Source of the DNA: Minisyncoccota bacterium
GTDB taxonomy: Bacteria; Patescibacteriota; Minisyncoccia; Phycocordibacterales; UBA9973
DNA: 62,486 bases
NCBI GenBank assembly: GCA_018063015.1
Contig: JAGORC010000001.1
Location: forward strand, 1 to 62,486
Reading direction: 5' to 3'
Positions 15,182-61,377 of the stretch are shown piece after piece. The position numbers were made by a program, and so were the translations under genes. How positions within the stretch are numbered: position 1 is the stretch's first letter; each line of letters starts with the position of its first letter. The notes beneath the pieces were generated by a model that saw only the letters and a list, made by a program, of their open reading frames with translations, had not been told where the DNA came from and searched no databases.

Positions 15182-15238
15182 TTTCCTATTATCAACAGCA
15201 TGTCTTGTTGACTTTGATTAAAGTGTTATAATTTAAAC

Positions 15239-16180
15239 GTGCAATTGAATTTAACATCTAATAACAAGCGGATTCTATTCACTATCGCATTTGTAGTGAT
15301 AGTGGTTTTACTTTTCTCACTCAATACTAAATCAACAATCAAGAACCAAGCTGGTCAAAGTACGGGATTGGTCTATGGAGATAAGACTCTAAGTGATGTT
15401 GTAAACACAGATTCTGATCTAGACGGAGTGCTTGATTGGGAAGAAGGACTATGGGGTACCGATGCACTAAAAACAGATTCTGATGGTGACGGCGTACCAG
15501 ATGGAACAGAGATAAGTAAGCTAAAGGGAGTAGAAGCAATAGATGACGGTAGTATACTTGAAGAAGAAGAGAATTTAACAGAGACTGACAAATTCTCAAG
15601 AGAAGTATTCACTACAGTAGCCACACTAAGCCAGTCAGGAACATTAACCCAAGAAACACTGGATGGTTTAGGATCTTCTTTGGCACAACAGATAGAGAAC
15701 CCTACAGTAAGTAAGGTGTTTTTATTTAGTGACATAAAGACGACAGGCAACAATACCGCTGAGTCCGCAAGAATATATTTAAATTCCCTAGACAGCATAT
15801 TCAAACAACAACCTCTATTATATAAGAATGGTTATGATGGAATGGTATATACAATAAATGTAACTTTTTCTGATGTTCTACAGAAATACCTATTAGATCC
15901 AGAGAGCGACAAGGCTTTCTCTGGTCTTGCTCAAATAACAAAAGAAATAGAAAGTACCATTAAATCAATGAAGGGGCTCACAGTTCCTAGTGGCTTATCT
16001 GTTATACATCTAGATATACTAAATAGTTTCCAGAGAATCTTAGAAAATATGACAAACACTAAGCTAGCAATAAAAGATCCTATTGTTGCTATGGGTGGAG
16101 CAAGTAAGTATGAAGAAAATGGTATGGCACTAGAGAGTGCATTAAATAGATTAAAGGTAGCAGTAGGTCAAACTAATTAA
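15239..16180 (+). CDS. membrane-anchored secreted protein with thrombospondin-type-3-like Ca-binding repeats
   Basis: 313-aa ORF (GTG start). N-terminal TM helix (ILFTIAFVVIVVLLF). DxDxDGxxDxxE-type repeats DSDLDGVLDWEE / DSDGDGVPDGTE at about 15410-15512. TATAAT at 15227-15232. Confidence 0.6.
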   Translation: MQLNLTSNNKRILFTIAFVVIVVLLFSLNTKSTIKNQAGQSTGLVYGDKTLSDVVNTDSDLDGVLDWEEGLWGTDALKTDSDGDGVPDGTEISKLKGVEAIDDGSILEEEENLTETDKFSREVFTTVATLSQSGTLTQETLDGLGSSLAQQIENPTVSKVFLFSDIKTTGNNTAESARIYLNSLDSIFKQQPLLYKNGYDGMVYTINVTFSDVLQKYLLDPESDKAFSGLAQITKEIESTIKSMKGLTVPSGLSVIHLDILNSFQRILENMTNTKLAIKDPIVAMGGASKYEENGMALESALNRLKVAVGQTN

Positions 16181-16197
16181 TATTAACTATATCCAAA

Positions 16198-17853
16198 ATG
16201 ATTTTTAAAAACTTATTGAGTCAAAAAATAATATCCTTCTTTCTAATAATTGCAGTTCTCTCTCCTGCTTTCATAATATTCTCTATGCCTAAAGAATCTT
16301 CTGCTATATTCGGAGTTGCTGATGTTGTGTTTGACCCAGCACTATTTCTTAAGGAAGTATGGAAAGTCATAAAAGAAACAATAAGACAGTTCTTAATGGC
16401 TATAGCTAGAAAGCTTCTAGATAAGATAACTCAGTCGACCATCAACTGGATAAATAGCGGCTTTAGGGGGAAACCACTCTTCGTAGAAAACCCCGGGTCG
16501 TTCTTTAAAGATGTAGCGAAGGAACAATTAAAGGGTATCGTTAATCAGCTTGGATACGACCCAGTTAGATTCCCGTTTGGGAAACAATATGCTCTGGGTA
16601 TAATACAACAAGCCAAGGGGCAATTTGAACAAAATGCTCAGTATAGTTTAAGTAAATATTATCAGAGTTCAGCAGAATTAGAATACAGAAGAGAAAACTT
16701 TAATGTAGGTGGATGGAGTGATTTTGCACTTAATACACAATTTCCACAAAATAACTTTATAGGATTCGGTATCATAGCTGATGAAGAACTTGCTACAAGG
16801 GTATCTGGGGAAAATTCTCCAATTCAAAACTTAAAAAATAGTGTACAACAAGGAATGGGATTTTTGTCTCCACAGGCATGTAAGAGTAATCCAAGCTGGG
16901 ATCCTGAAAAAATAGCACAAGGTATCCCTGAAAGCGAACTTCCACCTTACAACCCTCCAGCTGGAAATGGTATGGATGTAAAAGTCTACAATGACGTATG
17001 GAATGCGCAAGTGCGAGTAGCGAAGAATACGTTCCAAGCAAGGTATGGATGTAAGGAAGGTCCAGTTGCTACGACTCCAGGTTCAATCGTTTCAAGCCAG
17101 ATAATGACAGCCCTAGGGTCAAAGCAGAGACAAGGCGAACTCGGTGCAGCACTTGGAAACAGCCTAGCAGCATTGTTTGATGCTTTGTTAAATCACTTCT
17201 TCAATAAAGGCCTTACAGCTCTAACAAGTGCAGTGAGCTCAACTCCAGATCCAAACATTAACGATTTCAGTTACTTCGGCGACACTGGAGGTGGTTATGC
17301 AGGTAATCCTCCTACAAATCCAGAACCGAAAATAACAGTAAATGTTACTCTCATAAATGATAATGGTGGTACAGCTACACAAAACGATGTACAGGCATTC
17401 GTGGATGGTGCCCCAGTACAAGACGGAATAGCCTTAGTTTATGACACAGGAGGACACAATGTTTCTGTTACTACCCCAACAGACTATGTAGTAAGTGTCA
17501 GTGGGGATTGTTCTTCTAGTGGGTTCGTTACATTAAGCATTGGTGATAATAAAACTTGTTACATAACAGTTGATGATGTCATATCTGGAGGTACTGGAAG
17601 ACTGACTGTAAGAAAAATAGTAATAAACGACAATGGTGGAACACTTTTAGCAGATGATGTACAGCTGTTTGTTAATGGAAGTCAGAAACTAAACAATGTT
17701 GAGTATGTTTACGCTACAGGAACATATACTGTAACTGAAACAAATCCAACAGGATACTCAGCTTCTTTCGGAGGAGACTGTGCCTCAGATGGAAGTATAA
17801 CAATCTCTGACAATGATGTGTTGGAATGCACATTAACTAACAACGATCTATAG
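16198..17853 (+). CDS. membrane-anchored secreted protein with two C-terminal beta-sandwich-like repeats
   Basis: 551-aa ORF with an N-terminal TM helix. C-terminal tandem about 83-aa repeats (..INDNGGT..DV..FV.G.......Y..G...V....P.GY......GDC...G...) at 17329-17850. Confidence 0.6.
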   Translation: MIFKNLLSQKIISFFLIIAVLSPAFIIFSMPKESSAIFGVADVVFDPALFLKEVWKVIKETIRQFLMAIARKLLDKITQSTINWINSGFRGKPLFVENPGSFFKDVAKEQLKGIVNQLGYDPVRFPFGKQYALGIIQQAKGQFEQNAQYSLSKYYQSSAELEYRRENFNVGGWSDFALNTQFPQNNFIGFGIIADEELATRVSGENSPIQNLKNSVQQGMGFLSPQACKSNPSWDPEKIAQGIPESELPPYNPPAGNGMDVKVYNDVWNAQVRVAKNTFQARYGCKEGPVATTPGSIVSSQIMTALGSKQRQGELGAALGNSLAALFDALLNHFFNKGLTALTSAVSSTPDPNINDFSYFGDTGGGYAGNPPTNPEPKITVNVTLINDNGGTATQNDVQAFVDGAPVQDGIALVYDTGGHNVSVTTPTDYVVSVSGDCSSSGFVTLSIGDNKTCYITVDDVISGGTGRLTVRKIVINDNGGTLLADDVQLFVNGSQKLNNVEYVYATGTYTVTETNPTGYSASFGGDCASDGSITISDNDVLECTLTNNDL

Positions 17854-17910
17854 TTTATTTCATAATTAGTTGCTATAATTTATAGTAATAATCCTTCTTA
17901 GGATTGATTA

Positions 17911-20328
17911 ATGAAAAGTAGATTTTCTTATATTTTAATATCCGTATTAATGCTAGGATTTCTCCTTGCACCTTTTTCTCCTTTAATAATAGTTGATGGT
18001 GAGAAGATTGCTATAAAAATAGAGTCTAGAAAAGCTTTTGCTGAAACAAGATGGTACTACGAGTTCCAGCCACCTCTCGGTGGTAGCAACGTTATGTCTG
18101 TCGGATATGAAACAGAGACAGAATGTAACGCAGCCTCTCAGGTTACAAGCCAATCAGGTGGAACAATAATTAAAAATTGTTTTTCTTCAGACACAACACC
18201 AACAGCAACCGGTTCAGAATCTGAGAGCAATGGAACTGAGACAGGTCTCAAGGCAATGCTTAGAACATGTGGAATATCTAGAGGCTCATTCATCATAGGG
18301 TGTTTTATACAAATAATGTATTTCCTTTTTGTATCAATACCATCTTGGCTAATGCTTATGACTGCTCAGGTATTTGATACTGCTGCTGCTCTGACATTAA
18401 GTGATCAAGTTTACAGATCTGGGTTTATAAGCACAATTTGGACGATAGTAAGAGACTTCTCTAATGTATTTTTTATATTAATTCTACTTTATGCAGCGTT
18501 CCAAGTAATACTAGGACTCGGGCATGGTGGGGGAAAGAAGATTGTGGCTTCGGTGATACTTATCGCCTTAATGGTAAACTTCAGTTTATTTATTTCAAGG
18601 GTGGTAGTAGACGCTGGTAATGTATTAGGTCTTATTTTCTATAATAAAATATCAACAGACCACGTAAAATATCAACCAGTGAGTGATCCAACGCTAACAG
18701 GTGTAAAAGAGAAGGATTTAGCTGGAGCTCTGGTATCTAGTTTTGCAGTAAATAACTTTTTTAGCGCAGACTTCTTTAATGGATTAAAGAGTGACCCGGA
18801 CAACTGGGAAACTGCCGGATGTACAGGCGGTTGTGTAGGAAGAACAATAAATAATTGGCTTGCTGCGTCACTTATTGTCACATACGGTTTAATCGCATAC
18901 TCATTAGCTTGGATATTCTTAATTGTGGGAATAAGTTTTATTGGAAGACTGGCTACACTAATAATGCTTATGGTGATATCGCCCATAGCATTTGTCACAG
19001 CGACTGTTCCGACATTTAAAGGCATAGACACTATTGGTTTTGATAGTTGGCTGAAGAAACTTTTCCAGACATCATTCGTTGTTGCTGTGTTTATGGCGAT
19101 ACTTTACTTAGTTTCAGAAATATTAAAGGCGGATATATTTGATTCTTACAGTGTTGGACAAGAAGAACTGGGAATAGTGGCTAGGTTGATGCTCATATTC
19201 GTTCCTGCACTTTTGATACTTATCTTTTTGAAGAAAGGAAAGGAATATTCTGTAAAAGCTTCAGGTGAAATAACTGGTGCCCTTATTAGTGGCGCAAAGA
19301 TGCTAGGAGGACTTGCACTTGGTGGAGCAGCCCTTGGTGCTGCAGGTGCTGCCGTCATAGGAAGAAACACTGTTGGCAGTACTATGAACATGATGAAAAC
19401 AAGCCAAACCACAAGAGATGCCCATCTGAAAAATCTTAACTGGAACCCGAAAACTTGGGGTAAGGCACTTCAAGCTGGAATAGTAAACCAAACAGTAAAA
19501 GGTAGAGGAAAGGGTGTAAAAGACGTTCCTACTGGTACTTATGACATTAAAACTAGAAAAGAAATTATGGCAAGCAGAGAAGGTTCTAACTGGTTACGAG
19601 ATCAAATGTTGGGAGGAAATGCAAAGGATAAACAAAACAAAAAAGACAAATCTCACGCTACTCATGCATTAGATGAAGCAGCTGATAAAGTAGAGAAGGG
19701 TAAGAAATACTCAGATCTTGATACGAGTGGACAAAATTCAGCAAAAGAAAAAGCAACAAAATCAGAAATGGCTAAATTCTTATTTAATGGTAAAGATTTA
19801 TCAAAGTTAAGTGCTGGAGAAAATGCAATGATAAATAAAGCCGCAAACAATGATGGAACAATTAATAATGCTATATTTGATAGATACGCACAAAATCTAG
19901 GAAAAGACCCTAATAAATTCCACGATGGAGTACATATGGAAAAGGCCTACTTTAGTAAAGATACTCAGAGTACTGTCGGGCAAGCTGCAGGATGGGCTGG
20001 AAGAGGAGCAGCTTCTGGTACATATGATGTAAGGAACCTAAAGGGTGGAGCACTAACTGCAGCTGGTCTCGCTGCAGCTATGTTTGGACTAGCTCCTATT
20101 ATGGGAGCAGTGTTTGCAGCACATGCTTCAGGAGGATTGCGTTCAGGACTACAGAAGTTAACTGGTGTTGATCACGGAGACAGCAAGAAAGATTTCTTGA
20201 AGGACTTAAAGGCGACACTGGACTCAACATTGAAGAATCTAAAATTCGATATCAAGGTTACAGGGGACGGACATGGTGGAGGTGATGATCATAGCGCTGG
20301 ACATGGTGGAGGAGGAGGACATCATTAA
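17911..20328 (+). CDS. VirB6/TrbL-like polytopic membrane protein with long cytoplasmic tail
   Basis: 805-aa ORF. Signal/TM, Cys-containing ectodomain, multiple hydrophobic spans with TrbL/VirB6-like layout, Lys-rich C-terminal about 300 aa ending in a Gly/His tail. Located in a cluster with VirB4 and PrgI-like genes. TGCTATAAT at 17871-17879. Confidence 0.55.
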   Translation: MKSRFSYILISVLMLGFLLAPFSPLIIVDGEKIAIKIESRKAFAETRWYYEFQPPLGGSNVMSVGYETETECNAASQVTSQSGGTIIKNCFSSDTTPTATGSESESNGTETGLKAMLRTCGISRGSFIIGCFIQIMYFLFVSIPSWLMLMTAQVFDTAAALTLSDQVYRSGFISTIWTIVRDFSNVFFILILLYAAFQVILGLGHGGGKKIVASVILIALMVNFSLFISRVVVDAGNVLGLIFYNKISTDHVKYQPVSDPTLTGVKEKDLAGALVSSFAVNNFFSADFFNGLKSDPDNWETAGCTGGCVGRTINNWLAASLIVTYGLIAYSLAWIFLIVGISFIGRLATLIMLMVISPIAFVTATVPTFKGIDTIGFDSWLKKLFQTSFVVAVFMAILYLVSEILKADIFDSYSVGQEELGIVARLMLIFVPALLILIFLKKGKEYSVKASGEITGALISGAKMLGGLALGGAALGAAGAAVIGRNTVGSTMNMMKTSQTTRDAHLKNLNWNPKTWGKALQAGIVNQTVKGRGKGVKDVPTGTYDIKTRKEIMASREGSNWLRDQMLGGNAKDKQNKKDKSHATHALDEAADKVEKGKKYSDLDTSGQNSAKEKATKSEMAKFLFNGKDLSKLSAGENAMINKAANNDGTINNAIFDRYAQNLGKDPNKFHDGVHMEKAYFSKDTQSTVGQAAGWAGRGAASGTYDVRNLKGGALTAAGLAAAMFGLAPIMGAVFAAHASGGLRSGLQKLTGVDHGDSKKDFLKDLKATLDSTLKNLKFDIKVTGDGHGGGDDHSAGHGGGGGHH

Positions 20329-20343
20329 AATTAATTTAAAATT

Positions 20344-21312
20344 ATGGATCAAGAAGAATTACAAAAAAATATTGGGCTTTACTACTCCAAGCTACCTGAA
20401 GACATACAAAGAAAATTCTCTAGTATGGAATGGTTAAAAACATTAGAGGGTATTAGTAGCAAATATTCTCTAACTGACAAGCAGGTACAAATTTTAGGAA
20501 CAGAAACAACCCTAGCATTATTAGGAGTACTTCACTTAGGAGAATATGGGCAAATACTAGCAAAGGAACTAGAACTAAAGGATGATGTGCTACAAAATGT
20601 ATTAGCAGAAATTAATACTGAAATATTTAGAGAAATAACTCCAAAATTAAACGAGGCCTTTAATAAAAATAACCAACCAGATAAAAAAGAAGGGGAGAAT
20701 GTAATGACCCCAGGGCTAGAGAAGAAGCTAGAAGAACTACCAGGCTATGTAAAGGAAGCAGTAAATAAATCAAACTATGGGGAAGAACTATTCAAGATAG
20801 CTAAGGCTAAGGGACTTTCTATAACAGAGATAGGGGAATTAGAGAAAATAACAACAGATCTAATTGATGGCAAGTTGTCTCCTGAAAAACTTGAATCTAC
20901 AGTAGAGAGCATATTAAGGTTCGATAAGGATAAATCTACCGCCCTAGTATCAGAAATAAACGAAAAAATACTGAAAAACATAAGGAAAAACATGATGTCT
21001 GCAAGCGAGCTAGTGAGTACTCCTGTCCCAAAGTACACCAACCCAGAAAGTAGTGAAGCAATATTTAAAAAGGCGGGGATGGAAATACTCCAGAGTACTC
21101 CTGAGCTGAAAAGCGGAACCATATCGGAATCCAAGCTTGCTGAACCATTTAAAATACCATCTACAAAAACTGAATATTCAATAGCCAACATGTCTAAAAA
21201 TACACAAGCTGACAGTAGTACGCCGACAAAAGTAGAACCTCCTAAGGTAGAAACCCCAAAGGCTCCAGTATCTTACGGCAAGCAAGATCCTTATAGGATG
21301 CCTGTAGAATAA
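20344..21312 (+). CDS. soluble protein with internal duplicated helical module, function unknown
   Basis: 322-aa ORF with no TM. Two related about 55-aa modules (SLTDKQVQILGTETTLALLG..VLAEINTEIFREI versus GLSITEIGELEKITTDLIDG..LVSEINEKILKNI) and a Pro/Thr-rich tail. Confidence 0.55.
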   Translation: MDQEELQKNIGLYYSKLPEDIQRKFSSMEWLKTLEGISSKYSLTDKQVQILGTETTLALLGVLHLGEYGQILAKELELKDDVLQNVLAEINTEIFREITPKLNEAFNKNNQPDKKEGENVMTPGLEKKLEELPGYVKEAVNKSNYGEELFKIAKAKGLSITEIGELEKITTDLIDGKLSPEKLESTVESILRFDKDKSTALVSEINEKILKNIRKNMMSASELVSTPVPKYTNPESSEAIFKKAGMEILQSTPELKSGTISESKLAEPFKIPSTKTEYSIANMSKNTQADSSTPTKVEPPKVETPKAPVSYGKQDPYRMPVE

Positions 21313-21343
21313 ATCACTAGGAACTAAAGAATTTTTGAATTAT

Positions 21344-21362
21344 AATAAGAGTGACTCTTATT
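21344..21362. promoter_or_regulatory. 19-bp perfect palindrome overlapping a -10 box (candidate operator)
   Basis: AATAAGAGT-G-ACTCTTATT at 21344-21362. TATAAT at 21341-21346; the ATG of the PrgI-like gene is at 21374. Confidence 0.4.
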
Positions 21363-21373
21363 AAGAGCTTAGT

Positions 21374-21793
21374 ATGCAATTTAGAGTACCACAATTTTTA
21401 GACATTGAAGATACTATCTTCGGACCGTTTACATTTAAACAGTTCGTTTATCTAGTTGGTGGTGGAGCAATTTGTTTCGTAATTTATAAACTTATTGGGC
21501 TACTTGCTGGCATAATACCAATACTTATAGTTGCAGGATTTGCTTGTGCCCTAGCTTTCTATAGACCAAACAACAAACCGCTGGTTAATATGCTTGAGAA
21601 TGGTTTTAACTACTATACTCAGAGCAAGCTTTATATATGGAAGAGAAGAAAAGCAAAACCTGGACAACAAAAAAAGCTAGAAGAAGAGATAGTGATAGCC
21701 CCAACACCTAAATTAGATAAAGGAAAGCTTAGAGACTTGGCGTGGAGCTTAGATGTACTTGATTTAAAAAAAGAAGAAAACCAAGAAAATTAA
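21374..21793 (+). CDS. PrgI-family (VirB3-like) small membrane protein
   Basis: 139-aa ORF. N-terminus MQFRVPQFLDIEDTIFGPFTFKQFVYL followed by two TM helices, the pattern I recall for PrgI-family T4SS proteins. Immediately upstream of VirB4. Confidence 0.6.
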   Translation: MQFRVPQFLDIEDTIFGPFTFKQFVYLVGGGAICFVIYKLIGLLAGIIPILIVAGFACALAFYRPNNKPLVNMLENGFNYYTQSKLYIWKRRKAKPGQQKKLEEEIVIAPTPKLDKGKLRDLAWSLDVLDLKKEENQEN

Positions 21794-21794
21794 T

Positions 21795-22439
21795 ATGGCA
21801 TTAAGAGCAAGAGCAACTCAAGAGTTTGTACCTATAAAAGAAATACGCGACGGCGTAGTTGTTCTTAAGGACGGGGGGCTACGTGCTGTTGTGCTAGCAA
21901 ATTCTGTTAACCTAACACTTAAATCAGCGGATGAACAAAAGGCAACGATAATACAGTTTCAGAGCTTCCTTAACACTCTGGACTTCTATGTGCAGATATC
22001 TATTGAATCCAGAAGACTAGACATCAGGCCATATCTTCTTCAGTTAGAAAGTAGAATGAAAGTGCAGACAGAACCACTTCTTAAACTGCAAACGAAAGAG
22101 TATCTGGATTTCATTAGAAATTTTACAGAATCAGTAAGCATAATGACTAAGAACTTTTTTATTGTAGTACCTTATACAGAAACTTCTCTCAAACCAACTT
22201 CTGATGGAATCTTTGGAAGCTTCTTCTCTAAGAAGACTTCCAAGGAATTAAAGGCGGCGGAGCAGTTAGACTTCGAAGAAAAGAGAACCCAGCTAGAAGA
22301 GCGTGTATCTGTTATTCAACAAGGACTTGCAAGATGTGGAATCAAATCTGCTCAACTTGGAACAGAAGAAGTCGTGGAAGTATTTTATAAAGTTTTCAAT
22401 CCTGGAGAATCAGAAGGTAAAATAAAAATAGAACAATAA
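21795..22439 (+). CDS. soluble protein resembling the extreme N-terminal module of Gram-positive VirB4/TraE ATPases
   Basis: 214-aa ORF, 1 nt after the PrgI-like stop and 4 nt before virB4. Motif QEFVPIKEIRDGVVVLKDGGLRAVV..NLTLKSADEQ..IIQFQSFLNTLDFYVQI recalled from N-termini of Firmicutes-type VirB4 proteins (from memory, unverified). Confidence 0.4.
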   Translation: MALRARATQEFVPIKEIRDGVVVLKDGGLRAVVLANSVNLTLKSADEQKATIIQFQSFLNTLDFYVQISIESRRLDIRPYLLQLESRMKVQTEPLLKLQTKEYLDFIRNFTESVSIMTKNFFIVVPYTETSLKPTSDGIFGSFFSKKTSKELKAAEQLDFEEKRTQLEERVSVIQQGLARCGIKSAQLGTEEVVEVFYKVFNPGESEGKIKIEQ

Positions 22440-22443
22440 TAAA

Positions 22444-24291
22444 ATGGGATTTTTAGATAATTTATTAGGTAAAAAAAGTGAAACAAAAGAGGGAGCTACC
22501 CAGGCTTCTGTGTTGGCTGTTATGCCTGAAGAGATATATGAATCAGCAACGCTGGAACTCCAAGATATAATAGCCCCTTCCGCGCTAAAAATAGAATCTA
22601 AATCTATAAACCTAGGAGACAAGATAGCTAGAACATTTTTCATAATGTCTTATCCTAGATTTCTTACCGACAACTGGTTCTCACCAATAATAAACCTAGA
22701 CAAGGTGTTTGATATCGCAATATTTATTCACCCGATAGATACCTCTCTGGCATTAAGACAATTCCAGAAAAAAGTAGCGGAAGTGCAAAGCCAGATAAGC
22801 GTAAGAGAGGGGAAGGGTATGGTTAGAGACCCTAAACTAGATACAGCATATCAAGACCTAGAAGCATTGAGAGACAATCTAATGCAAGCACAGGAGAAGA
22901 TGTTTGACGTGGGTGTCTATATAACAATATATGCTGACAACGAATTAGAATTATTTAAAATAGAAAGTGAAATAAAGTCAGTCTTAGAATCAAAACTTAT
23001 CTACATCAAACCTGCCTTATTCCAACAAGATGAAGGATTCAAGAGTGTTATACCAATAGGTAATGATCTCTTATCAGTACATCAAAAACTAAATTCAGAA
23101 CCATTGTCTAGTATCTTCCCATTCGTATCTTTTGACCTTACTTCTGATAAGGGAATACTTTATGGAGTAAACAGACACAACTCAAGTCTAATAATATTTG
23201 ATAGGTTTTCTCTCGAGAACTATAACTCAGTTACATTTGCAAAATCTGGCTCAGGAAAATCGTATGCGACAAAACTAGAAATATTGAGATCGCTTATGTT
23301 TGATGTAGATGTAATAGTTATAGATCCTGAGAGGGAATACGAATACCTAGCTGATACTGTGGGTGGAAGATATTTCAATATTTCACTATCTTCTGACCAC
23401 CACATTAATCCCTTCGATCTACCAATACCAAGAGAAGATGAAACAGCAGAAGATGTTCTTCGTTCGAACATAATCAACCTAGTAGGATTGTTCCGTCTAA
23501 TGTTAGGAGGTCTAACTCCAGAGGAAGATGCCCTTGTCGACAGAGCTATATCAGAAACATATGCAATTAAAGACATAACTCCAGAATCAGATTTTGGAAA
23601 TATAGAACCTCCACTACTTTCTGACTTCGAAATGGTTCTATCAGGTATGGAAGGAAGTGAATCTGTAGTTCAGCGATTAACAAAATATACAAAAGGTTCT
23701 TGGTCTACCTTCATAAACAGGCCATCTAACGTAGACATAAACAAGAAGTTCGTAGTCTTTTCTGTAAGAGATATGGAGGACGAACTTAAGCCTGTAGCTA
23801 TGTATATAGTTACCCACTACATATGGAACGTCATAAGAAAAAATCTAAAGAAGAGAATCCTTGTAGTGGACGAAGCTTGGTGGATGATGAAATCAGAAGA
23901 TACTGCTTCTTTCTTGTACTCAATAGCAAAAAGAGGAAGAAAATACTACCTAGGACTCGCAACAATAACTCAGGATGCAGCTGACTTTATGAAATCCCCA
24001 TATGGAGTTCCTATTGTTACAAACTCGTCTATCCAGCTACTTCTAAAGCAGTCTCCAAGTACAATAGATGTATTACAGAAAACATTTAACCTAACAGATG
24101 AAGAAAAGTATCTATTACTAGAGTCAGGGGTAGGAGAGGGTATATTCTTTGCCGGTACTAAGCACGTAGCCATAAAGGTTATTTCTTCTTATACAGAAGA
24201 TCAAATAATAACTTCAGATCCTTCTCAGATACTCTCAATAAAGAAATCTAAACAAGAACTAGAGGAAGCAGAAGAAGTTGGCAAAGCCTAG
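22444..24291 (+). CDS. virB4: VirB4/TrbE-family type IV secretion ATPase
   Basis: 615-aa ORF; Walker A FAKSGSGKSYATK, Walker B RILVVDEAWWMM, ITQDAADF motif. N-terminal IAPSALKI..INLGDKIARTFFIMSYPRFL pattern typical of VirB4. Confidence 0.85.
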   Translation: MGFLDNLLGKKSETKEGATQASVLAVMPEEIYESATLELQDIIAPSALKIESKSINLGDKIARTFFIMSYPRFLTDNWFSPIINLDKVFDIAIFIHPIDTSLALRQFQKKVAEVQSQISVREGKGMVRDPKLDTAYQDLEALRDNLMQAQEKMFDVGVYITIYADNELELFKIESEIKSVLESKLIYIKPALFQQDEGFKSVIPIGNDLLSVHQKLNSEPLSSIFPFVSFDLTSDKGILYGVNRHNSSLIIFDRFSLENYNSVTFAKSGSGKSYATKLEILRSLMFDVDVIVIDPEREYEYLADTVGGRYFNISLSSDHHINPFDLPIPREDETAEDVLRSNIINLVGLFRLMLGGLTPEEDALVDRAISETYAIKDITPESDFGNIEPPLLSDFEMVLSGMEGSESVVQRLTKYTKGSWSTFINRPSNVDINKKFVVFSVRDMEDELKPVAMYIVTHYIWNVIRKNLKKRILVVDEAWWMMKSEDTASFLYSIAKRGRKYYLGLATITQDAADFMKSPYGVPIVTNSSIQLLLKQSPSTIDVLQKTFNLTDEEKYLLLESGVGEGIFFAGTKHVAIKVISSYTEDQIITSDPSQILSIKKSKQELEEAEEVGKA

Positions 24292-24327
24292 CTTTATTTA
24301 GAGAACGATTTATCTTATAATTAGAGA

Positions 24328-25308
24328 ATGCGACTAAAGGCTTTAATACTTGGTTTTATATCTCTATCTTTTTTCTTAACTGGAGGGATTGTTTTTGCAC
24401 AACAAGAATCAACAAGTATTATAGTTAATACTATACCTATAAATCCTGCACCAGGAGAAGATGTTAGTGTTTACATATCAAGCTACTCAGAGAATCTTGA
24501 TATTGCCACTATGACTTGGTTTGTTGATGGTAAAAGTGTTTTATCTGGTGTAGGAGAAAAGTCTCTTATATTAAAAGCTCCTAATTTTGGACAGGAAACC
24601 AAGGTTGTTATAAAGGTTAAATCTCAAACTGAAGAATCTCAAGTAAGCACGGTTTTAAAGCCTTCTTATATGGTACTCCTATGGGAAGCAACGGATTCTT
24701 ATGTACCCCCTTTCTACAAAGGCAAGGCTTTACCTTCCCCAGACAGTTTTGTTAAGGTTGTGGCTCTGCCAGAGATTACCTCTGGTGGGGTAAAATTAGA
24801 TCCTAAAAATATATCTTATACTTGGCAAAAAGATTTTAACAATATGCCAACTGATTCTGGTTATGGAAAGAACTATTTTATATACAAGAATGATTATTTA
24901 GAAAATTCTAATAATATCGGTGTGACTGCTTATTTAACAGACCAACAATATTCATCGACAGGAAGAATCGACATAAGTATGTACCAGCCATTTATAGACC
25001 TATATCGGAAAGATTTGAAATTAGGTATAGATTGGAACAATGTATTAAACAATAGTCACTTCATAAAAGGTAGTGACATTATAGTTGCATCGCCGTATTT
25101 TATATCACCCAAAGACATAAGAAGGCCAGATTTAATTTTTAATTGGGCTATAAACAACACAACTGTTGACAATACGGGCGTAAATAAAAATATGCTTCCA
25201 TTACAAACAGAAGAAGGAGTATCTGGTTCTGCTAACGTAAAACTAGAAGTAAATAACTTAAATAAAATATTCCAAACAGCAGAGAAGGAAATTAATATAT
25301 CATTTTAA
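24328..25308 (+). CDS. secreted protein, function unknown
   Basis: 326-aa ORF; signal peptide (LKALILGFISLSFFLTGGIVFA) and beta-rich sequence. TATAAT at 24316-24321 lies 6 nt from the ATG. Confidence 0.55.
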   Translation: MRLKALILGFISLSFFLTGGIVFAQQESTSIIVNTIPINPAPGEDVSVYISSYSENLDIATMTWFVDGKSVLSGVGEKSLILKAPNFGQETKVVIKVKSQTEESQVSTVLKPSYMVLLWEATDSYVPPFYKGKALPSPDSFVKVVALPEITSGGVKLDPKNISYTWQKDFNNMPTDSGYGKNYFIYKNDYLENSNNIGVTAYLTDQQYSSTGRIDISMYQPFIDLYRKDLKLGIDWNNVLNNSHFIKGSDIIVASPYFISPKDIRRPDLIFNWAINNTTVDNTGVNKNMLPLQTEEGVSGSANVKLEVNNLNKIFQTAEKEINISF

Positions 25309-25313
25309 TAAAT

Positions 25314-26945
25314 ATGAAAAATATATATAAAAAATTAGTATTTCTAGGATTAGCGCTTATATGTTTTCTATCCATTCATGGTAGTGCTAGCGCTCAGCTA
25401 CTGAACCTTAGTTCAGATAATAGTAATCTACAAGTAGGACAATCTGCTGTAATAACTGCAACATCTGGATCTGGATCTGGTAGTGTATTTTTTAAACAAA
25501 CTCCAGCCACAGGTGGCCGTTTTGACCCGACTATATGTACTACAACAGGTGGAATAATGTCTACCTCATGTAGTGTTAGATTCTACCCCACATCAGCAGG
25601 AACCTACACTATATCTGGTACTCTAACCATTAATGGGACAACAACTCAAAGCCTATCATCAACCAATCCTAGAATCAAAGTTACAGCAAACACAAGCACT
25701 GCTCCTACTCTAATAGGGGATATTGTGGACTCGACACCACCTACTATTTTTCAAGGAGATCAAGTCGAGCTAAAAATAACAGCAAGCCCAATACCTTCAG
25801 GTGGGCCTACTGTGTTTATCAGTAGCCCAACTCTAGGCAATATAGGAACTTGTGTAATAAACACAACAGCTGGAGGAATATGTACTTCTGGTTTTGGTCC
25901 TATCCGACTTAATACTGGAATAGAGGGCGCACATGATATAAACTTCTCAACTACATCTTGGCCTAACTACACAGGAACTGTTTCAGGAACAATAAAAATG
26001 ACAGTTCAAAAGACGATAACTAACCCTCCTGTGCTAGATGTATGTTTTCCCCCAAAAATAAAAACCTCTACTGGTGCATGTGTTGATCCTAGTACGATAG
26101 ATACTGGGTATACATATTTGGCTCCATTATCTGAAGACAAGTCATTTGACCCAGCTCAAGAAAATGCGTTAAGTAAATATATAAACATTATTGTAAAGAT
26201 AGCTATAGGCATAGCTGCCGTTCTAGCTGTAATAATGATTGTAATGGGAGGAATACAGTATATGACAAGCGAACTCATTTCTAGTAAAGAAGAAGGTAAG
26301 AAAAGAATAACAAATGCTATCTTGGGATTGTTAATAGCATTAGGTGCTTATCTAATATTGTTTACAATAAATCCCAACTTGTTGAAATTGGATGTAGCTG
26401 TACCATCAACGGAATTATCATTTACACCAGGTGAGGATGGATTAGGAACAACACCCGAATCCACTTCAACAACATCTAGTGGAAACGTAAGAAGAAAGGT
26501 TAATTTAAAATTAAAGACTGGTGGAACTACAGAGGTAATTGCATGTGAAGCCACAGACAAAGTTCAAGTAAGTGCTTTTGGTACTAGTTTTAGTATACAC
26601 AAAAATTTAGTTCCAAGTCTTAGAAGAATTGATGCTAGGTGGAAACAGTTAAATCCATCATATAAAATTCCACTAACAGTTGCTGACAAAGGAGCAATGG
26701 GGGGTTATGTCTGCAGGAATGCAAGAGGTATGGGTAAGCTTTCTTGGCATGCTTATGGCTTAGCGGTAGACATAAACCCTAGTACGAATCCAGCTGGTAA
26801 TAAATTAATAACGGATATGCCAGCAGCCTTTGTAAAACTTTGGAAAGATGAAGGATGGGGTTGGGGAGGTGGCTGGAGTAGTCAAAAAGATGCAATGCAT
26901 TTTAGTAAAGGTAAAAATGAAGGTGGTGATATGACAGGTGAATAA
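25314..26945 (+). CDS. secreted Ig-like domain / T4SS-pilin-like TM hairpin / M15 peptidase fusion protein
   Basis: 543-aa ORF. Signal peptide; Thr/Ser-rich beta region with Cys pairs; two-helix hairpin IIVKIAIGIAAVLAVIMIVMGGIQYMTS..KKRITNAILGLLIALGAYLILF (nt 26166-26384); C-terminal SWHAYGLAVDI and DAMHF zinc-peptidase M15 motifs (nt 26526-26918). Confidence 0.65.
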   Translation: MKNIYKKLVFLGLALICFLSIHGSASAQLLNLSSDNSNLQVGQSAVITATSGSGSGSVFFKQTPATGGRFDPTICTTTGGIMSTSCSVRFYPTSAGTYTISGTLTINGTTTQSLSSTNPRIKVTANTSTAPTLIGDIVDSTPPTIFQGDQVELKITASPIPSGGPTVFISSPTLGNIGTCVINTTAGGICTSGFGPIRLNTGIEGAHDINFSTTSWPNYTGTVSGTIKMTVQKTITNPPVLDVCFPPKIKTSTGACVDPSTIDTGYTYLAPLSEDKSFDPAQENALSKYINIIVKIAIGIAAVLAVIMIVMGGIQYMTSELISSKEEGKKRITNAILGLLIALGAYLILFTINPNLLKLDVAVPSTELSFTPGEDGLGTTPESTSTTSSGNVRRKVNLKLKTGGTTEVIACEATDKVQVSAFGTSFSIHKNLVPSLRRIDARWKQLNPSYKIPLTVADKGAMGGYVCRNARGMGKLSWHAYGLAVDINPSTNPAGNKLITDMPAAFVKLWKDEGWGWGGGWSSQKDAMHFSKGKNEGGDMTGE

Positions 26946-26950
26946 ATATT

Positions 26951-28318
26951 ATGTCGAAAAGAAATTTTATATTGTTAATAATAGTGTTGGTTATAATAAT
27001 ATTAGCTGTTTTGGCTTTTATGTTTTTCTCTGGAAATAAAGGCGAGACAATATCTGACGAAGGTGGTACCAATTTCTTCGCTAAATTTAATCCATTTGGT
27101 AAAAACAATAATCAAGAAGAGGATACAAATAGTGATGAAGAGGGGACAACAGATACGACACCAACATTGCCGACAGAAGGATTAAGATTAAGAAAGGTAT
27201 CTACGATGCCAGTTGCTGGATATGGAATATTCTCAAAAGAAAGATTCAAGGAATTGCCTATGCCAGAGGACACGACAGGAACTGAATTTGATGAAGAAGA
27301 GGATTCAACACCAATTTTAGACGATAGTAAGACTGTTTTACCTACTAAATCAATAACTCCTCCTTCAACTGAGTTTGCAACAGCACTAAGGTACGTTGCT
27401 AAGGAAACTGGATATGTATATCAAACTTTTGCAGACAAAATAGAGGAAAGACGTTTTTCTTCAACTTATATACCTAAGGTGCATGAAGCATTCTTTGGCA
27501 ACAAAGGGGAGAGTGTTGTCATGCGATATTTGAAATCCGACGACAGAACCATTGATACTTTTTTAGGGACACTGCCTAAGGAAGTTCTAGGAGGGGACAC
27601 TAGTGACACTAATGAATTAAAAGGTTCTTTCTTGCCGGAAAATGTGACAAACATATCTTTGTCTCCTGATTTATTTAATATATTTTATACTCTCAATACA
27701 GGTAACTCATTTATAGGTACGACAGCAGGCATAGTAGGCGACAAGAAGAATCAGATATTTAGTTCTGCTTTTACAGAATGGCTAACTGAGTGGCCTAATC
27801 AGAAGATTATAACCTTAACAACAAAACCATCTTCTGGAATCCCAGGATATATGTATTTTCTAGACAGCACAAAAAAGGTAACTTCAAGAGTGCTCAGTGA
27901 TATAAAGGGACTTACAACTCTAACTAGTCCTACTGGTAAATTCGTACTTTATGGAAACGATGTCCTAGAAATGTCTATCGTAAACGTAACTTCTAAAAAT
28001 ATAACGAATGTTCCAATAAAGGGGTTGCCTGAAAAATGTGTTTGGGGTAAGAATGATTTAGCAATATACTGCCTTGCTCCTGGCTATGTATCTAATGGAA
28101 AATATCCAGACATATGGTATCGAGGTGAGATTTCTTTTTCTGATCAAATATGGAAGTTTGATTCAATCTCAGGAGCAACAGAAATTATTTTAGACCCGCT
28201 AACAGTAGAAGGGGGAGAGGACATAGATGGAATAAGATTAATGCTAGATACAAACGAAAACTACTTATTTTTCATGAATAAGAAAGATTCATATCTCTGG
28301 GAGTTTAAATTAAACTAA
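26951..28318 (+). CDS. membrane-anchored extracytoplasmic protein, function unknown
   Basis: 455-aa ORF; N-terminal TM (FILLIIVLVIIILAVLAFMFF), acidic Thr-rich linker, large beta-rich (propeller-like?) domain. Confidence 0.55.
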   Translation: MSKRNFILLIIVLVIIILAVLAFMFFSGNKGETISDEGGTNFFAKFNPFGKNNNQEEDTNSDEEGTTDTTPTLPTEGLRLRKVSTMPVAGYGIFSKERFKELPMPEDTTGTEFDEEEDSTPILDDSKTVLPTKSITPPSTEFATALRYVAKETGYVYQTFADKIEERRFSSTYIPKVHEAFFGNKGESVVMRYLKSDDRTIDTFLGTLPKEVLGGDTSDTNELKGSFLPENVTNISLSPDLFNIFYTLNTGNSFIGTTAGIVGDKKNQIFSSAFTEWLTEWPNQKIITLTTKPSSGIPGYMYFLDSTKKVTSRVLSDIKGLTTLTSPTGKFVLYGNDVLEMSIVNVTSKNITNVPIKGLPEKCVWGKNDLAIYCLAPGYVSNGKYPDIWYRGEISFSDQIWKFDSISGATEIILDPLTVEGGEDIDGIRLMLDTNENYLFFMNKKDSYLWEFKLN

Positions 28319-28800
28319 ATAGAACCTAAATATTTTATAACTACTCTTCTATTAGGACCAGTTCCTTCTGATTCTGTTTTCAGGTCTTGTTCGTTTGATA
28401 GAAATTCATGTACTATACGTCTTTCAAATGCAGGCATAGGATCAATTTCAACACTTGATTTGAAGTATCTGGCACGCTCTGCCATCATATGTGCAATAGC
28501 GTGTAGATTCTCTATTCTTTTCTTCTGAAATCCATTTATATCTATAATAAACTCTGGGAGATTTTCTCTGTCTTCTTCTTTTGTTTTGTTTTCTACTATT
28601 TTCTTTACTAAATGGTTAAAGGCAAACAAAGCTTCTCCTCCACGGCCCAAGAAGGCATATGAACTAGGTGACTCTACAGCAAACCATAGTGCATTGTCTT
28701 TACCCAAAGAAGTTTCTTCTTGTATTGCAACATTTGAGTCTTCAAGGCCTAGCTTAGACAAGATTTCTCTTATTAAATTTAATATTTCATTACTATTCAT
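28315..28800 (-). CDS. jag: Jag/KhpB-like KH plus R3H RNA-binding protein
   Basis: 161-aa ORF; C-terminal R3H pattern (FERRIVHEFL....EGTGPNRRVVI). Position downstream of yidC. Confidence 0.75.
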   Translation of the reverse strand: MNSNEILNLIREILSKLGLEDSNVAIQEETSLGKDNALWFAVESPSSYAFLGRGGEALFAFNHLVKKIVENKTKEEDRENLPEFIIDINGFQKKRIENLHAIAHMMAERARYFKSSVEIDPMPAFERRIVHEFLSNEQDLKTESEGTGPNRRVVIKYLGSI

Positions 28801-29527
28801 TACTCTTTACTGTGGTTAAGCTTATGTTTTTCTTGTTGGTGTATATTTGCTGACCAATACTGAAGATATTACTTGTAATCCAATAAAGTGCAACTGCTCC
28901 AGAAACACTGTATGCAATAAATGCTACAAGGAAAGGGAAAACATATCTCATTTGAATTTGCATACTCCTAGCAAAGTTCTCCTGGAAAGAATTACCGTCT
29001 CCTTTGTTTTTAGGTGGCTTAGGCATGAAGTAAGCTTGGAAATACTGAGAAATACCAGCTAAAACAGCCAATATTAAACTTTTCTGACCGATATCAAGCA
29101 ACCCTAGAAACTGAGTGTTAACATTTTCTGGTGCGCTAATAAATGAATACAGTAGCCCCTCATCAAAATTTATACCTTTATAGAACACATAGTATAGGGC
29201 GAATATTATCGGTATTTGGATTAAAACAAGTAAGCATCCAGAGAAAGGATTAGTTTTATGTTTCTTATATAGTTCAAAAGTGAGTTTGGCTTGCTCTTCT
29301 TTACTCTTACCACTTTTCTTTATGGCATCCATTTCTGGAGCCAGTAAATTCATTTTAGCCTGATTTTCTATAGACTTCTTGGAAAGTGGAGATAGAAGAA
29401 TCTTAACAAATAAGGTTAATATAACCACCGCAAGACCTAGGTCACCCCCAGGCATTACAGAAACTAAAAAAGCCAGAATGTTTAATAATGGCTTATATAA
29501 AAGAATATTCCATATATTGTGAAGCAT
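28793..29527 (-). CDS. yidC: membrane protein insertase YidC (short form)
   Basis: 244-aa polytopic ORF; conserved synteny rnpA-yidD-yidC-jag; motif PLSKKS..M..L.P....IKKK-like region. Confidence 0.9.
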   Translation of the reverse strand: MLHNIWNILLYKPLLNILAFLVSVMPGGDLGLAVVILTLFVKILLSPLSKKSIENQAKMNLLAPEMDAIKKSGKSKEEQAKLTFELYKKHKTNPFSGCLLVLIQIPIIFALYYVFYKGINFDEGLLYSFISAPENVNTQFLGLLDIGQKSLILAVLAGISQYFQAYFMPKPPKNKGDGNSFQENFARSMQIQMRYVFPFLVAFIAYSVSGAVALYWITSNIFSIGQQIYTNKKNISLTTVKSNE

Positions 29528-29562
29528 TTCATCATTCTATATGAAAACTACTTAAATTACAA

Positions 29563-29772
29563 TTACTTCACCGGATCAATATGATTTTTCTGCCAAGGAT
29601 GACACCTAAGTATTCTAAGAAACCCCATAAAAGAGCCCTTAAAAACACCATATTTAACAATAGCTTGTTTGGTATATTCTGAACAGGTAGGGAAGAATAC
29701 ACAGCTTGGTTTTTTGTAGATACTTATTCTTTTTTGGTAAAACTCGATAGATTTTATAAAAATATTTTTCAT
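29563..29772 (-). CDS. yidD: membrane protein insertion efficiency factor YidD
   Basis: 69-aa ORF with CVFFPTCSEYTKQAI..G..KG......RILRCHPW signature. Confidence 0.9.
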   Translation of the reverse strand: MKNIFIKSIEFYQKRISIYKKPSCVFFPTCSEYTKQAIVKYGVFKGSFMGFLRILRCHPWQKNHIDPVK

Positions 29773-30122
29773 ATCTTGGCTAAAGTGTCCTTTATTTCTT
29801 TATCTAATTGGGGATATATATCAGCTTTTTGGGTGTTTGGCTCTTTTAAAATAGACTTTTTATTAAAAACAAACACCCCGGAAAAACCTTGGGGCAGTAG
29901 GGATATTTTATCTTTTAAAGCATCATATCCTGCTCTGCGTAGCATATTTCTCTTGTGTGCCTTATTAGATACGCTTTTAGGGGCAGAGAACGCCACCTTG
30001 GGTAGTTTAGAGCCTTTGTTTATAAGGTATTTTAGAAAAAAGTTGCTAGAGTAAATAACTCTACCAACCTTAAATATTTCACCAACCTCCTTACGTGAAA
30101 TTCTATTTTTCTTTGGGAGCAT
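29769..30122 (-). CDS. rnpA: ribonuclease P protein component
   Basis: 117-aa basic ORF, KAHKRNMLRR motif. Starts 1 nt after the rpmH stop; overlaps yidD by 4 nt. Confidence 0.85.
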   Translation of the reverse strand: MLPKKNRISRKEVGEIFKVGRVIYSSNFFLKYLINKGSKLPKVAFSAPKSVSNKAHKRNMLRRAGYDALKDKISLLPQGFSGVFVFNKKSILKEPNTQKADIYPQLDKEIKDTLAKI

Positions 30123-30123
30123 T

Positions 30124-30258
30124 TTATGCTGAGATTTTAGCTCGACCCTTTCTTCTTCTTCTTAAAAGGACGTTTTTCCCGTTTGTAGTCTTAGATCTAG
30201 ATAGAAAACCGTGGGCCTTTGCTCTTTTTCTCTTGTTGGGACTGTATGTTTGTGACAT
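30124..30258 (-). CDS. rpmH: 50S ribosomal protein L34
   Basis: Not in the ORF track (44 aa). Manual translation [44 protein letters not shown] matches the L34 consensus. Confidence 0.9.
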
Positions 30259-30264
30259 GTTGCT

Positions 30265-30293
30265 AGTATACCCATACATAATAAAAAAGTCAA
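30265..30293 (-). promoter_or_regulatory. canonical promoter of rpmH (leaderless)
   Basis: Minus strand: -35 TTGACT (30288-30293), 17-nt spacer, -10 TATACT (30265-30270), 6 nt, ATG at 30258. Confidence 0.7.
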
Positions 30294-30319
30294 AAATGAA
30301 AAATGTGTGTTGAAATACT

Positions 30320-30341
30320 TTATCAACAGATTATCAACAGA
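30320..30341 (+). promoter_or_regulatory. two tandem DnaA-box-like 11-mers
   Basis: Exact direct repeat TTATCAACAGA x2 (30320-30330, 30331-30341). TTATCAACA differs by one base from the TTATCCACA consensus. Lies between the divergent rpmH and dnaA promoters. Confidence 0.6.
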
Positions 30342-30396
30342 GTTAGTAAGATTTTACTTATTCACTAAGGAGGGGAGAATAGTATAATATTCCACT

Positions 30397-31737: not shown

Positions 31738-31967
31738 CTGTTGAAAAGTTAGGGAAAAGTAGAATTAAAGTTAGTAGAAAGTTGTTAATAATTATTATTG
31801 TTTTAGAAGTTTTAAAAGATGGTTGTGTATAAGTAAGTTTTTATTAATAAAATATAAAATAAAAAATTATTAATTAAGTATTATAAATAAATAATAAATT
31901 TGATTTATCCACTTATTAACAGGACTAATAACAGTAATAAATTATATATAGATAAATATAAACATAT
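31738..31967. other. candidate oriC / DNA-unwinding region
   Basis: 230-bp extremely AT-rich dnaA-dnaN spacer. Four AAAGT motifs at exact 11-bp spacing (31745, 31756, 31767, 31778). DnaA box TTATCCACT at 31905-31913, followed by TAA TAA CAG TAA TAA (31926-31940) and an AT tract. Confidence 0.5.
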
Positions 31968-54320: not shown

Positions 54321-54338
54321 AAAATTATTATAACAAAG

Positions 54339-61344: not shown

Positions 61345-61377
61345 GACTTAATTATACTAAAAAGTTATCGCTTGTGT

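Follow-up and report, generated by a model that had tools for sequence, protein, structure and literature searches.

A chromosomal, relaxase-less type IV secretion locus beside dnaA, with a pilin-like hairpin fused to a wall hydrolase, in a Minisyncoccota genome

The window analysed here, the whole 62,486-nt contig JAGORC010000001.1 of a Minisyncoccota bacterium, carries at positions 15239–28318 a set of ten genes (g1–g10) that belongs to a type IV secretion system (T4SS). We put at about 80% the probability that the locus is a chromosomal, vertically inherited Patescibacteria T4SS which descended from the MPF_FATA (CD1110/CTn2-like) conjugation machinery of single-membrane bacteria, and which moves proteins or other molecules rather than carrying out conjugation. 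The system itself is already published; the locus is its Paceibacteria/Nomurabacteria version, from a metagenome-assembled genome of that group and not of Saccharibacteria, and meeting it again amounts to a rediscovery with a few added details. An earlier note on this DNA had proposed a minimal, relaxase-less T4SS-like locus that is not a conjugative element. This reading is correct but not new, because two reports (PMC10633639, PMC12102498) already describe a relaxase-less, dnaA-proximal system. What the present analysis adds is modest, namely the accessory set and a pilin-like protein that swaps its hydrolase.

All ten open reading frames (ORFs) of the locus lie on the plus strand where the earlier note had placed them, with intergenic gaps, from g1 to g10, of 17, 57, 15, 61, 1, 4, 36, 5 and 5 nt. 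The gene count in that note was right, but only nine genes had been assigned; the one passed over, g6 (21795–22439), encodes a TrsD-like protein that makes up the N-terminus of a VirB4 split in two. For comparison, one genome per GTDB species was scanned, which gave 593 stretches with VirB4 relatives. The related loci referred to throughout are the best 80 of these, in which VirB4 is 76–91% identical to that of the window and which are labelled Nomurabacteria, Paceibacterota or Parcubacteria.

The T4SS core

The motor is encoded by g7 (22444–24291, plus strand), a 615-aa VirB4 ATPase body with middle and P-loop domains, which NCBIfam places in the CD1110 family. The motifs claimed for it, Walker A GSGKS and a Walker B-like VVDEAWWMM, are read in the sequence, and the protein scores 373 bits against NCBIfam conju_CD1110 (cut-off 325) over model positions 182–734; in Pfam it matches P-loop_TraG (7e-24), AAA_10 and DUF87. 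By BLASTP, its residues 37–572 correspond to residues 213–758 of a 797-aa clostridial VirB4 (E 4e-87). The preceding gene, g6 (plus strand, 214 aa), covers the missing front part: its residues 6–211 correspond to residues 25–202 of the same clostridial protein (E 1e-11), and in NCBIfam it matches CD1110 VirB4 model positions 2–165 as well as TrsD (1.4e-6, far under the 200-bit cut-off). Since g6 and g7 align to successive parts of one clostridial VirB4, VirB4 is encoded here in two pieces. The two are also separate ORFs in 78 of the 80 related loci.

Separated from virB4 by g6 alone, g5 (21374–21793, plus strand) encodes a 139-aa PrgI/VirB3-like protein with two transmembrane (TM) segments. 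The earlier call is borne out by Pfam PrgI (2.8e-8, 34.6 bits against a gathering cut-off of 27), and TcpE is matched at 3e-4.

The polytopic protein g3 (17911–20328, plus strand, 805 aa) had been called VirB6/TrbL-like. It has no match in Pfam, TrbL included, and the VirB6-like call is carried by its predicted fold and by weak but recurring NCBIfam matches. A signal/TM segment and a small outside domain precede a conserved TM core of about six helices (residues 125–450), and a long hydrophilic C-terminal region follows, ending in a conserved Gly/His tail, GGGHH; the TM scan counts about 6–8 helices in all. An AlphaFold2 model of residues 1–500, built from 91 sequences, has a mean pLDDT (per-residue confidence) of 79, rising above 90 in the TM core. 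When this model was compared with the PDB by Foldseek, the top two matches were chains of the R388 TrwJ/VirB5–TrwI/VirB6 stalk (probabilities 1.00 and 0.99), two further R388 stalk chains stood at ranks 4 and 7, and the remaining matches had probabilities of at most 0.15. From the modelled fold, VirB6-like is the best reading of g3, and we hold it with moderate confidence. Despite an overall identity of 28%, residues W177, N223, F224, S225, D234, N237 and R346 of the TM core are invariant among orthologues. The start of g3 is disputed in public annotations (17911 or 17950), so that 805-aa and 792-aa versions coexist.

A pilin-like hairpin fused to interchangeable wall hydrolases

By Pfam and NCBIfam, g9 (25314–26945, plus strand, 543 aa) joins a pilin-like hairpin to an M15 (LAS) peptidoglycan peptidase, where a pilin-like hairpin plus cell-wall hydrolase had been claimed. 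From the N-terminus, it comprises a signal peptide, an outside region of about 260 aa that is Ser/Thr-rich and probably Ig-like, a hairpin of two TM segments (about 292–312 and 333–353) with a basic cytoplasmic loop, and the M15 peptidase on the outside; the hairpin is thus flanked by a 259-aa N-terminal extension and a 183-aa hydrolase. The hairpin matches Pfam T4SS_pilin at residues 286–348 (1.5e-6, 28.6 bits against a gathering cut-off of 26.6) and the Mbov_0395 pilin-like family of NCBIfam (4e-6). The Pfam TrbC/VirB2 model is matched at 5.5e-3, and the same model matches five orthologues. At the C-terminus, Peptidase_M15_4 is matched at residues 473–531 (1.9e-15). Judged by this domain order, g9 appears to combine the VirB2 and VirB1 roles.

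The T4SS_pilin hairpin recurs in 61 of 72 g9 orthologues, with median extensions of 142 aa on the N-terminal and 183 aa on the C-terminal side. Their recognisable C-terminal domains are peptidoglycan-active enzymes of several classes, namely NlpC/P60 (13), VanY (9), YkuD (5), Amidase_5 (5), M15_4 (4) and SLT (3), and the class varies even between genomes with a VirB4 that shares 87% identity or more with that of the window. Identical types of fusion occur among 394 database homologues of g9. Such fusions go unmentioned in Quinonero-Coronel et al. 2025 (PMC12102498). A pilin hairpin that is, to judge from these sequences, systematically fused to interchangeable wall hydrolases is a small addition to the known picture.

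In some of the related loci, two genes encode pilin hairpins, as in L001 (12871–14619 and 16024–17871), L066 (12777–14228 and 14248–15675) and L077 (13882–15306 and 15358–16146), and one L077 protein has two hairpins by itself. These duplicated hairpins recall the arrays of pilins that have been reported for Saccharimonadia and Microgenomatia.

Chromosomal setting and vertical inheritance

The window extends 15 kb upstream and 34 kb downstream of the locus. Upstream lie uvrD/pcrA and ksgA; downstream, jag, yidC, yidD, rnpA and rpmH follow on the opposite strand, and then dnaA and dnaN, with the dnaA start 2.1 kb from the end of the locus, in agreement with the earlier estimate of about 2 kb. 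Elsewhere the window encodes proteins of repair, replication and translation, as well as a PilB-type pilus ATPase. The GC content of the locus, 0.35–0.385, is the same as that of the remainder of the window.

The absence of conjugation genes, which had been claimed for all 62 kb, was confirmed by Pfam searches of 50 ORFs (the ten of the locus and 40 further ones): no relaxase, VirD4 or other type IV coupling protein (T4CP), integrase, or VirB8, VirB9 or VirB10 was found, although for VirD4 this holds for the contig only. Likewise, no family of the outer-membrane core complex (VirB7/9/10) was found in the window. Its sole PF00437-family ATPase, a 565-aa T2SSE protein with an MshEN N-domain (40363–42060, minus strand), is of PilB/GspE type and most likely a type IV pilus assembly ATPase rather than the VirB11 equivalent of the T4SS. 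The only repeats are short and of low identity, and none bracket the locus; no tRNA lies closer than about 9 kb on the upstream side or about 18 kb on the downstream side.

The order uvrD–ksgA–g1…g10–jag–yidC–rnpA–dnaA–dnaN is kept in nearly all of the 80 related loci. Median identities, calculated between the window protein and its orthologues in these loci, are 85% for VirB4 (g7), 81% for DnaA (30397–31737), 72% for g6 (78 orthologues), 66% for DnaN and 65% for YidC; VirB4 is thus more conserved than DnaA. For the other locus products they descend from 56% for PrgI (g5; 75 orthologues) through 44% for g10 (67 orthologues), 38% for g2, 35% for g8 (72 orthologues), 32% for g4 and 31% for g1 (36 orthologues) to 28% for g3, the lowest of all. 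Together, the synteny and the identity figures indicate that the locus is an old, vertically inherited core feature. On these alignments the motor appears extremely constrained, and the envelope parts fast-evolving. Against its best plasmid homologues, all from Firmicutes or Actinobacteria, g7 is only 27–35% identical.

These data bear directly on the possibility that the locus is the transfer module of an integrative and conjugative element (ICE), whose relaxase, coupling protein and integrase would be encoded a short way beyond the window or on a different contig. It is true that VirB4 falls in the CD1110 family of conjugative elements, that the core order matches a clostridial conjugation module, and that VirD4-like genes are common elsewhere in Patescibacteria genomes (PMC12102498). 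An ICE, however, is hard to reconcile with a position between ksgA and jag–yidC–rnpA–dnaA that almost all relatives share, with a VirB4 divergence that tracks that of DnaA, with window-typical GC and no flanking direct repeats, and with the lack of integrase, relaxase and T4CP over 15 kb upstream and 34 kb downstream. Moreover, relaxases are present in only 103 of 3,035 Patescibacteria genomes (PMC12102498). We therefore regard an ICE as extremely unlikely; synteny, composition and the absence of bracketing repeats largely refute it, and it was rejected. The core-gene flanks, the shared order, the window-typical GC and the lack of repeats, integrase and relaxase instead make the locus chromosomal and vertically inherited. 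Two of the tests that the earlier note had put forward, synteny across relatives and a search for flanking repeats, come out in favour of its reading, as do the profile searches for VirB4, PrgI, the pilin and M15 in Pfam and NCBIfam and, with moderate confidence, the structural comparison for the VirB6-like protein.

A phage origin was also considered and rejected. The PHROGs database gave only a match of VirB4 (g7) to a terminase-labelled P-loop family and matches of the M15 domain of g9 to endolysin types.

Relation to known systems

The closest described system is the Patescibacteria T4SS clade, with the cluster SEML1_0006–0019 of the Saccharibacterium Southlakia epibionticum as prototype. 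By transposon sequencing, Wang et al. 2023 (PMC10633639) found this cluster to be essential for growth on the host; it resembles Gram-positive conjugative systems, has pilins and is without recognisable coupling or relaxase proteins. Quinonero-Coronel et al. 2025 (PMC12102498) found VirB4 in 2,417 of 3,035 Patescibacteria genomes, as a monophyletic clade inside MPF_FATA. In their survey TrsD is the commonest partner, PrgI/VirB3, VirB6 and VirB2-like pilins are encoded near virB4, VirB8 is mostly undetected, and most genomes have VirD4-like genes, as a rule at a distance from virB4. For Paceibacteria they place virB4 in the neighbourhood of dnaA, dnaN, rnpA, ksgA and rpmH. A 2025 review gives the same picture (PMC12857230), and we found no later functional paper on the system in the literature.

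The window locus agrees with this clade in being chromosomal, relaxase-less and without a coupling protein in the cluster, and in its set of VirB4, TrsD-like, PrgI/VirB3, VirB6-like and VirB2-like pilin proteins, with a peptidoglycan hydrolase downstream of virB4. Its dnaA, dnaN, rnpA, ksgA and rpmH context matches that of Paceibacteria exactly. It differs in having one pilin-like gene where the prototype has an array of six, in the fusion of the hairpin to a hydrolase and an outside N-domain, and in g1, g2, g4, g8 and g10, which are without named counterparts. The published picture is left unchanged by this one further instance. The system matters nevertheless, as it is among the few machines known to be essential for episymbiosis in a very large, mostly uncultured share of bacterial diversity.

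Among conjugative elements, the Clostridium botulinum plasmid pCDC3875 (MPF_FATA, CD1110/CTn2 type) is colinear with the locus in its core order VirB6–PrgI–VirB4–wall hydrolase and shares the single-membrane architecture without VirB7/9/10; the window VirB4 passes the CD1110 cut-off and is 32% identical to that of this type over 552 aligned residues. Unlike the window, however, the plasmid encodes a VirD4 of the CD1115 family, and its typing gives a MOBP relaxase. Its VirB4 is a single protein of 797 aa, as opposed to 214 + 615 aa in the window, its hydrolase is annotated as an SLT protein of 957 aa, with no pilin domain in the annotation, and its accessory proteins have no detectable similarity to those of the window.

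The Mycoplasma ICE trio Mbov_0395/0396/0397 provides the best or only NCBIfam matches of g9 (4e-6), g3 (1.5e-4) and g6/g7 (1e-9 and 5e-80), although all of these are under the curated cut-offs. The match of g9 to Mbov_0395 means that a pilin-like hairpin also exists in a wall-less, monoderm MPF_FATA system and is not foreign to MPF_FATA. The ICEs of Mycoplasma are mobile elements that carry a DDE transposase and TraG/VirD4; they come from cells with no wall, and so have no wall hydrolases. In the staphylococcal plasmids pGO1/pSK41, TrsD and TrsE repeat the arrangement of g6 and g7, in that a small homologue of the VirB4 N-terminus is encoded directly ahead of the VirB4 ATPase; pGO1 itself is conjugative and encodes both a relaxase and a coupling protein. 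Finally, the MPF_T systems of R388 and Agrobacterium resemble the locus in the fold of g3, which is nearest to the R388 stalk chains, and in the VirB2-like hairpin of g9. They differ in that the window has no VirB7/9/10, no VirB11 and no confident VirB5 or VirB8, and belongs to a single-membrane host.

Proposed function and its alternatives

As to how such a machine would work, VirB4 hexamers would dock on PrgI and VirB6 and drive the building of a conduit across the envelope; a short pilus-like structure, with the g9 hairpin as its building block or its anchor, may be part of it. The hydrolase of g9 would open the cell wall locally (the VirB1 role), and g2, with its adhesin-type stalk domains, would form the wall-spanning, host-contacting parts together with g1, g8 and g10. 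Once assembled, the system would carry proteins or other molecules between episymbiont and host. Because the locus has neither a relaxase nor a coupling protein, and because its place next to oriC is conserved in many species, conjugation of DNA is most likely not its function. The more likely role, by analogy, is the exchange with the host that has been proposed for its homologue in S. epibionticum, where epibiotic growth depends on the system.

Several points weigh against this reading. The analogy draws on a different class, Saccharimonadia and not Paceibacteria, and even there a 2024 perspective calls the role of the system 'completely unknown', with effector delivery and nucleotide or DNA uptake as the ideas (PMC11665869). 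A coupling protein may be encoded elsewhere in the genome; most Patescibacteria genomes do have VirD4-like genes, so that the system may yet serve DNA transfer or uptake. For g3, the TM-scores against the R388 stalk chains are low (0.24–0.35), the matches of its orthologues to the NCBIfam families MMCAP2_0566 (7/43), Mbov_0396 (6/43) and CD3337/EF1877 (2/43), which are membrane proteins of monoderm conjugative elements, are all sub-threshold, and an hhalign comparison with one clostridial CD1112-family VirB6 was not significant (E 0.058). No Pfam or NCBIfam match to VirB8, PrgL or TcpC was obtained for any locus product or for 120 orthologues of g1, g4, g8 and g10, and profiles of g1, g8 and g10 found no VirB8-like entry in the PDB. 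Furthermore, g9 may polymerise as a pilin or may merely anchor the hydrolase.

The perspective's second idea leads to an import machine, that is, a ComB- or Ced-like T4SS taking up DNA, nucleotides or other host macromolecules for a cell that does not make them itself. ComB-type uptake needs no coupling protein, Patescibacteria are without nucleotide synthesis, and g7 has a weak partial match, far under the cut-off, to archaeal CedB in NCBIfam (1.9e-8). An uptake role has been proposed in the literature because, in S. epibionticum, competence through comEC is dispensable while the T4SS is essential (PMC11665869, PMC12857230). The CedB match, however, is limited to the conserved ATPase core, ComB- or Ced-specific partners are not recognisable, and import by such a system has no experimental precedent in monoderm bacteria. 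The direction of transport is not readable from sequence. On balance, import seems to us an unlikely function of the locus.

An adhesion or wall-remodelling device was also weighed, in which VirB4 would build a fibre on the cell surface, or bring wall hydrolases and adhesins (g2, g9) to the site of host contact, and nothing would be translocated. The fusion of the hairpin to wall hydrolases in most orthologues would suit such a device, as would the adhesin-type CnaB domains and variable C-termini of g2, and the envelope parts evolve fast, as host-contact surfaces would. Yet a VirB6-like channel protein with invariant TM residues has been kept, conservation as extreme as that of the ATPase points to a translocation motor, and adhesion is already served by type IV pili (PMC10633639), for which the window encodes a PilB-type ATPase. 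We consider a device of this kind very unlikely.

Within the translocation reading, a more specific idea concerns g9, which may form the subunit or the base of a fibre on the cell surface, with interchangeable peptidoglycan-cleaving enzymes and Ig-like modules at its exposed ends; it would then be neither a plain pilin nor a housekeeping VirB1. The enzyme classes (M15, VanY, NlpC/P60, YkuD, SLT) could fit the wall chemistries of different hosts, and the Paceibacteria T4SS would breach the host wall for an exchange conduit. We consider this idea unlikely; if true, it would be a mode of action undescribed for any T4SS.

Accessory proteins

The products of g1, g2, g4, g8 and g10 are lineage-specific, four of them envelope or secreted proteins and one cytoplasmic. 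Sequence inspection and the TM scan agree with the earlier description of g1, g2, g8 and g10 as TM-anchored or signal-peptide proteins and of g4 as soluble. Local hhalign runs of the accessory alignments against all proteins of the pCDC3875 transfer region gave nothing (all probabilities below 3%). Pfam, run on the 120 orthologues of g1, g4, g8 and g10, returned TSP3_bac, PG_binding_1 and PD40 only, and profiles of g1, g2, g3, g4 and g8 found nothing significant among PDB sequences. Since the envelope parts diverge fast and swap domains, they are candidates for the host interface; these four envelope proteins and the cytoplasmic one, with its invariant C-terminal motif, are defined targets for further study.

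The bitopic envelope protein g1 (15239–16180, plus strand, 313 aa), to which the TM scan and sequence assign no family, has an N-terminal TM segment, two bacterial thrombospondin-type-3 Ca-binding repeats (DxDxDG) and then a helical domain; TSP3_bac is matched in seven orthologues. The gene contains the internal DNA repeat D2.

g2 (16198–17853, plus strand, 551 aa) is a surface protein by Pfam, AlphaFold2 and Foldseek, with a signal/TM segment, a conserved helical N-domain of about 330 aa and two C-terminal CnaB/prealbumin-type beta-sandwiches. Pfam SpaA_2 is matched at 2.5e-5. In the AlphaFold2 model the C-terminal domains have a pLDDT above 90, as opposed to 40–70 for the N-domain, and in Foldseek only these CnaB-type domains were matched, to Gram-positive pilus adhesins and surface proteins. 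Orthologues vary in length (527–1094 aa) and in the type of C-terminal domain; T2SS-T3SS_pil_N is matched in 4 of 23, and DUF4141, weakly, in 2 of 23. In Bacteroides conjugative transposons, the DUF4141 gene adjoins traJ and traG (the TraI position), and a link of the g2 N-domain to DUF4141/TraI-like proteins may serve as a weak lead. A role of g2 as a VirB5-like tip protein is not claimed, given the pLDDT of its N-domain and the two DUF4141 matches as sole support.

g4 (20344–21312, plus strand, 322 aa) is a soluble, probably cytoplasmic protein of no assigned family, judging by its sequence, with two internal repeats of about 90 aa. Although overall identity is only about 32%, the C-terminal residues D315-P316-Y317 are invariant in 38 of 38 orthologues; g4 is undetected in about a quarter of the related loci. 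Either this D-P-Y motif or the GGGHH tail of g3 could be a docking or recognition motif.

g8 (24328–25308, plus strand, 326 aa) has a signal peptide, by which it is predicted to be secreted, and no assigned family. Judged from its sequence it is apparently beta-rich, and it carries the conserved motif YVPPFYKGKALP. The last gene, g10 (26951–28318, plus strand, 455 aa), encodes a bitopic envelope protein for which sequence and a profile search of the PDB gave no family; it has an N-terminal TM segment, an acidic linker and an outside domain with conserved Cys363 and Cys374. Its profile found only a weak PDB match, TolB 7mx5 (E 0.009), and PD40 is matched in two orthologues, which hints weakly at a beta-propeller-like (TolB/PD40-like) outside domain.

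Putative promoters and other features of the window

The four TATAAT boxes reported earlier at 15227, 17874, 21341 and 24316 are all present on the plus strand. Across the window TATAAT is not enriched (93 observed, 91 ± 10 in shuffles), yet one TATAAT stands in each of the four larger intergenic gaps of the locus, which add up to 211 nt. Two boxes stand exactly 6 nt ahead of a start codon, namely 15227–15232, an extended −10-like box (TGT-TATAAT) ahead of the g1 GTG, and 24316–24321, ahead of the g8 ATG; the boxes at 17874–17879 and 21341–21346 stand 31 nt ahead of g3 and 27 nt ahead of g5. From TATAAT position only, we propose that the first is probably a leaderless promoter for the unit g1–g2, the second (17874) a promoter for g3–g4, the third (21341) one for g5–g6–g7, and the fourth (24316) a leaderless promoter for g8–g9–g10. 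A scan of the locus for consensus sigma-70 promoters and terminators did not rise above shuffles.

Window-wide, TATAAT, often as TGnTATAAT, stands 6–8 nt ahead of the start in many genes that come first in apparent operons. Examples of the 6-nt type are 15227→15239, 24316→24328, 45009→45021 and, on the minus strand, 1597–1602→1590, 54327–54332→54320 and 61351–61356→61344; examples with 8 nt are 42589→42603 and 30383→30397. In none of the 50 genes examined did the 20 nt ahead of the start contain a Shine-Dalgarno motif. The proximity of TATAAT to the starts and the lack of Shine-Dalgarno motifs together suggest that leaderless mRNAs and Shine-Dalgarno-independent initiation are widespread in the source organism.

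The origin-region gene set at 28315–33065 is canonical, with yidD at 29563–29772 and rpmH at 30124–30279 (minus strand). GC falls to 0.275–0.295 at 30–34 kb, where two tandem DnaA-box-like 9-mers (TTATCAACA) occur at 30320 and 30331; two others stand at 31824 and 31905, and such boxes are not enriched window-wide.

Upstream of the locus, two large adjacent plus-strand ORFs (7616–9382 and 9360–12461) have products of 588 and 1033 aa that are highly charged, of low complexity, rich in Glu, Lys and Pro and of no Pfam family, with a very strong AT skew in the DNA (0.34–0.37). They had no tblastn match in the 80 related loci, most of which end at uvrD. Two wall proteins are also encoded outside the locus, both on the minus strand: a LysM-LysM-Peptidase_M23 protein (6243–7259) and a small PG_binding_1 protein (46299–46844).

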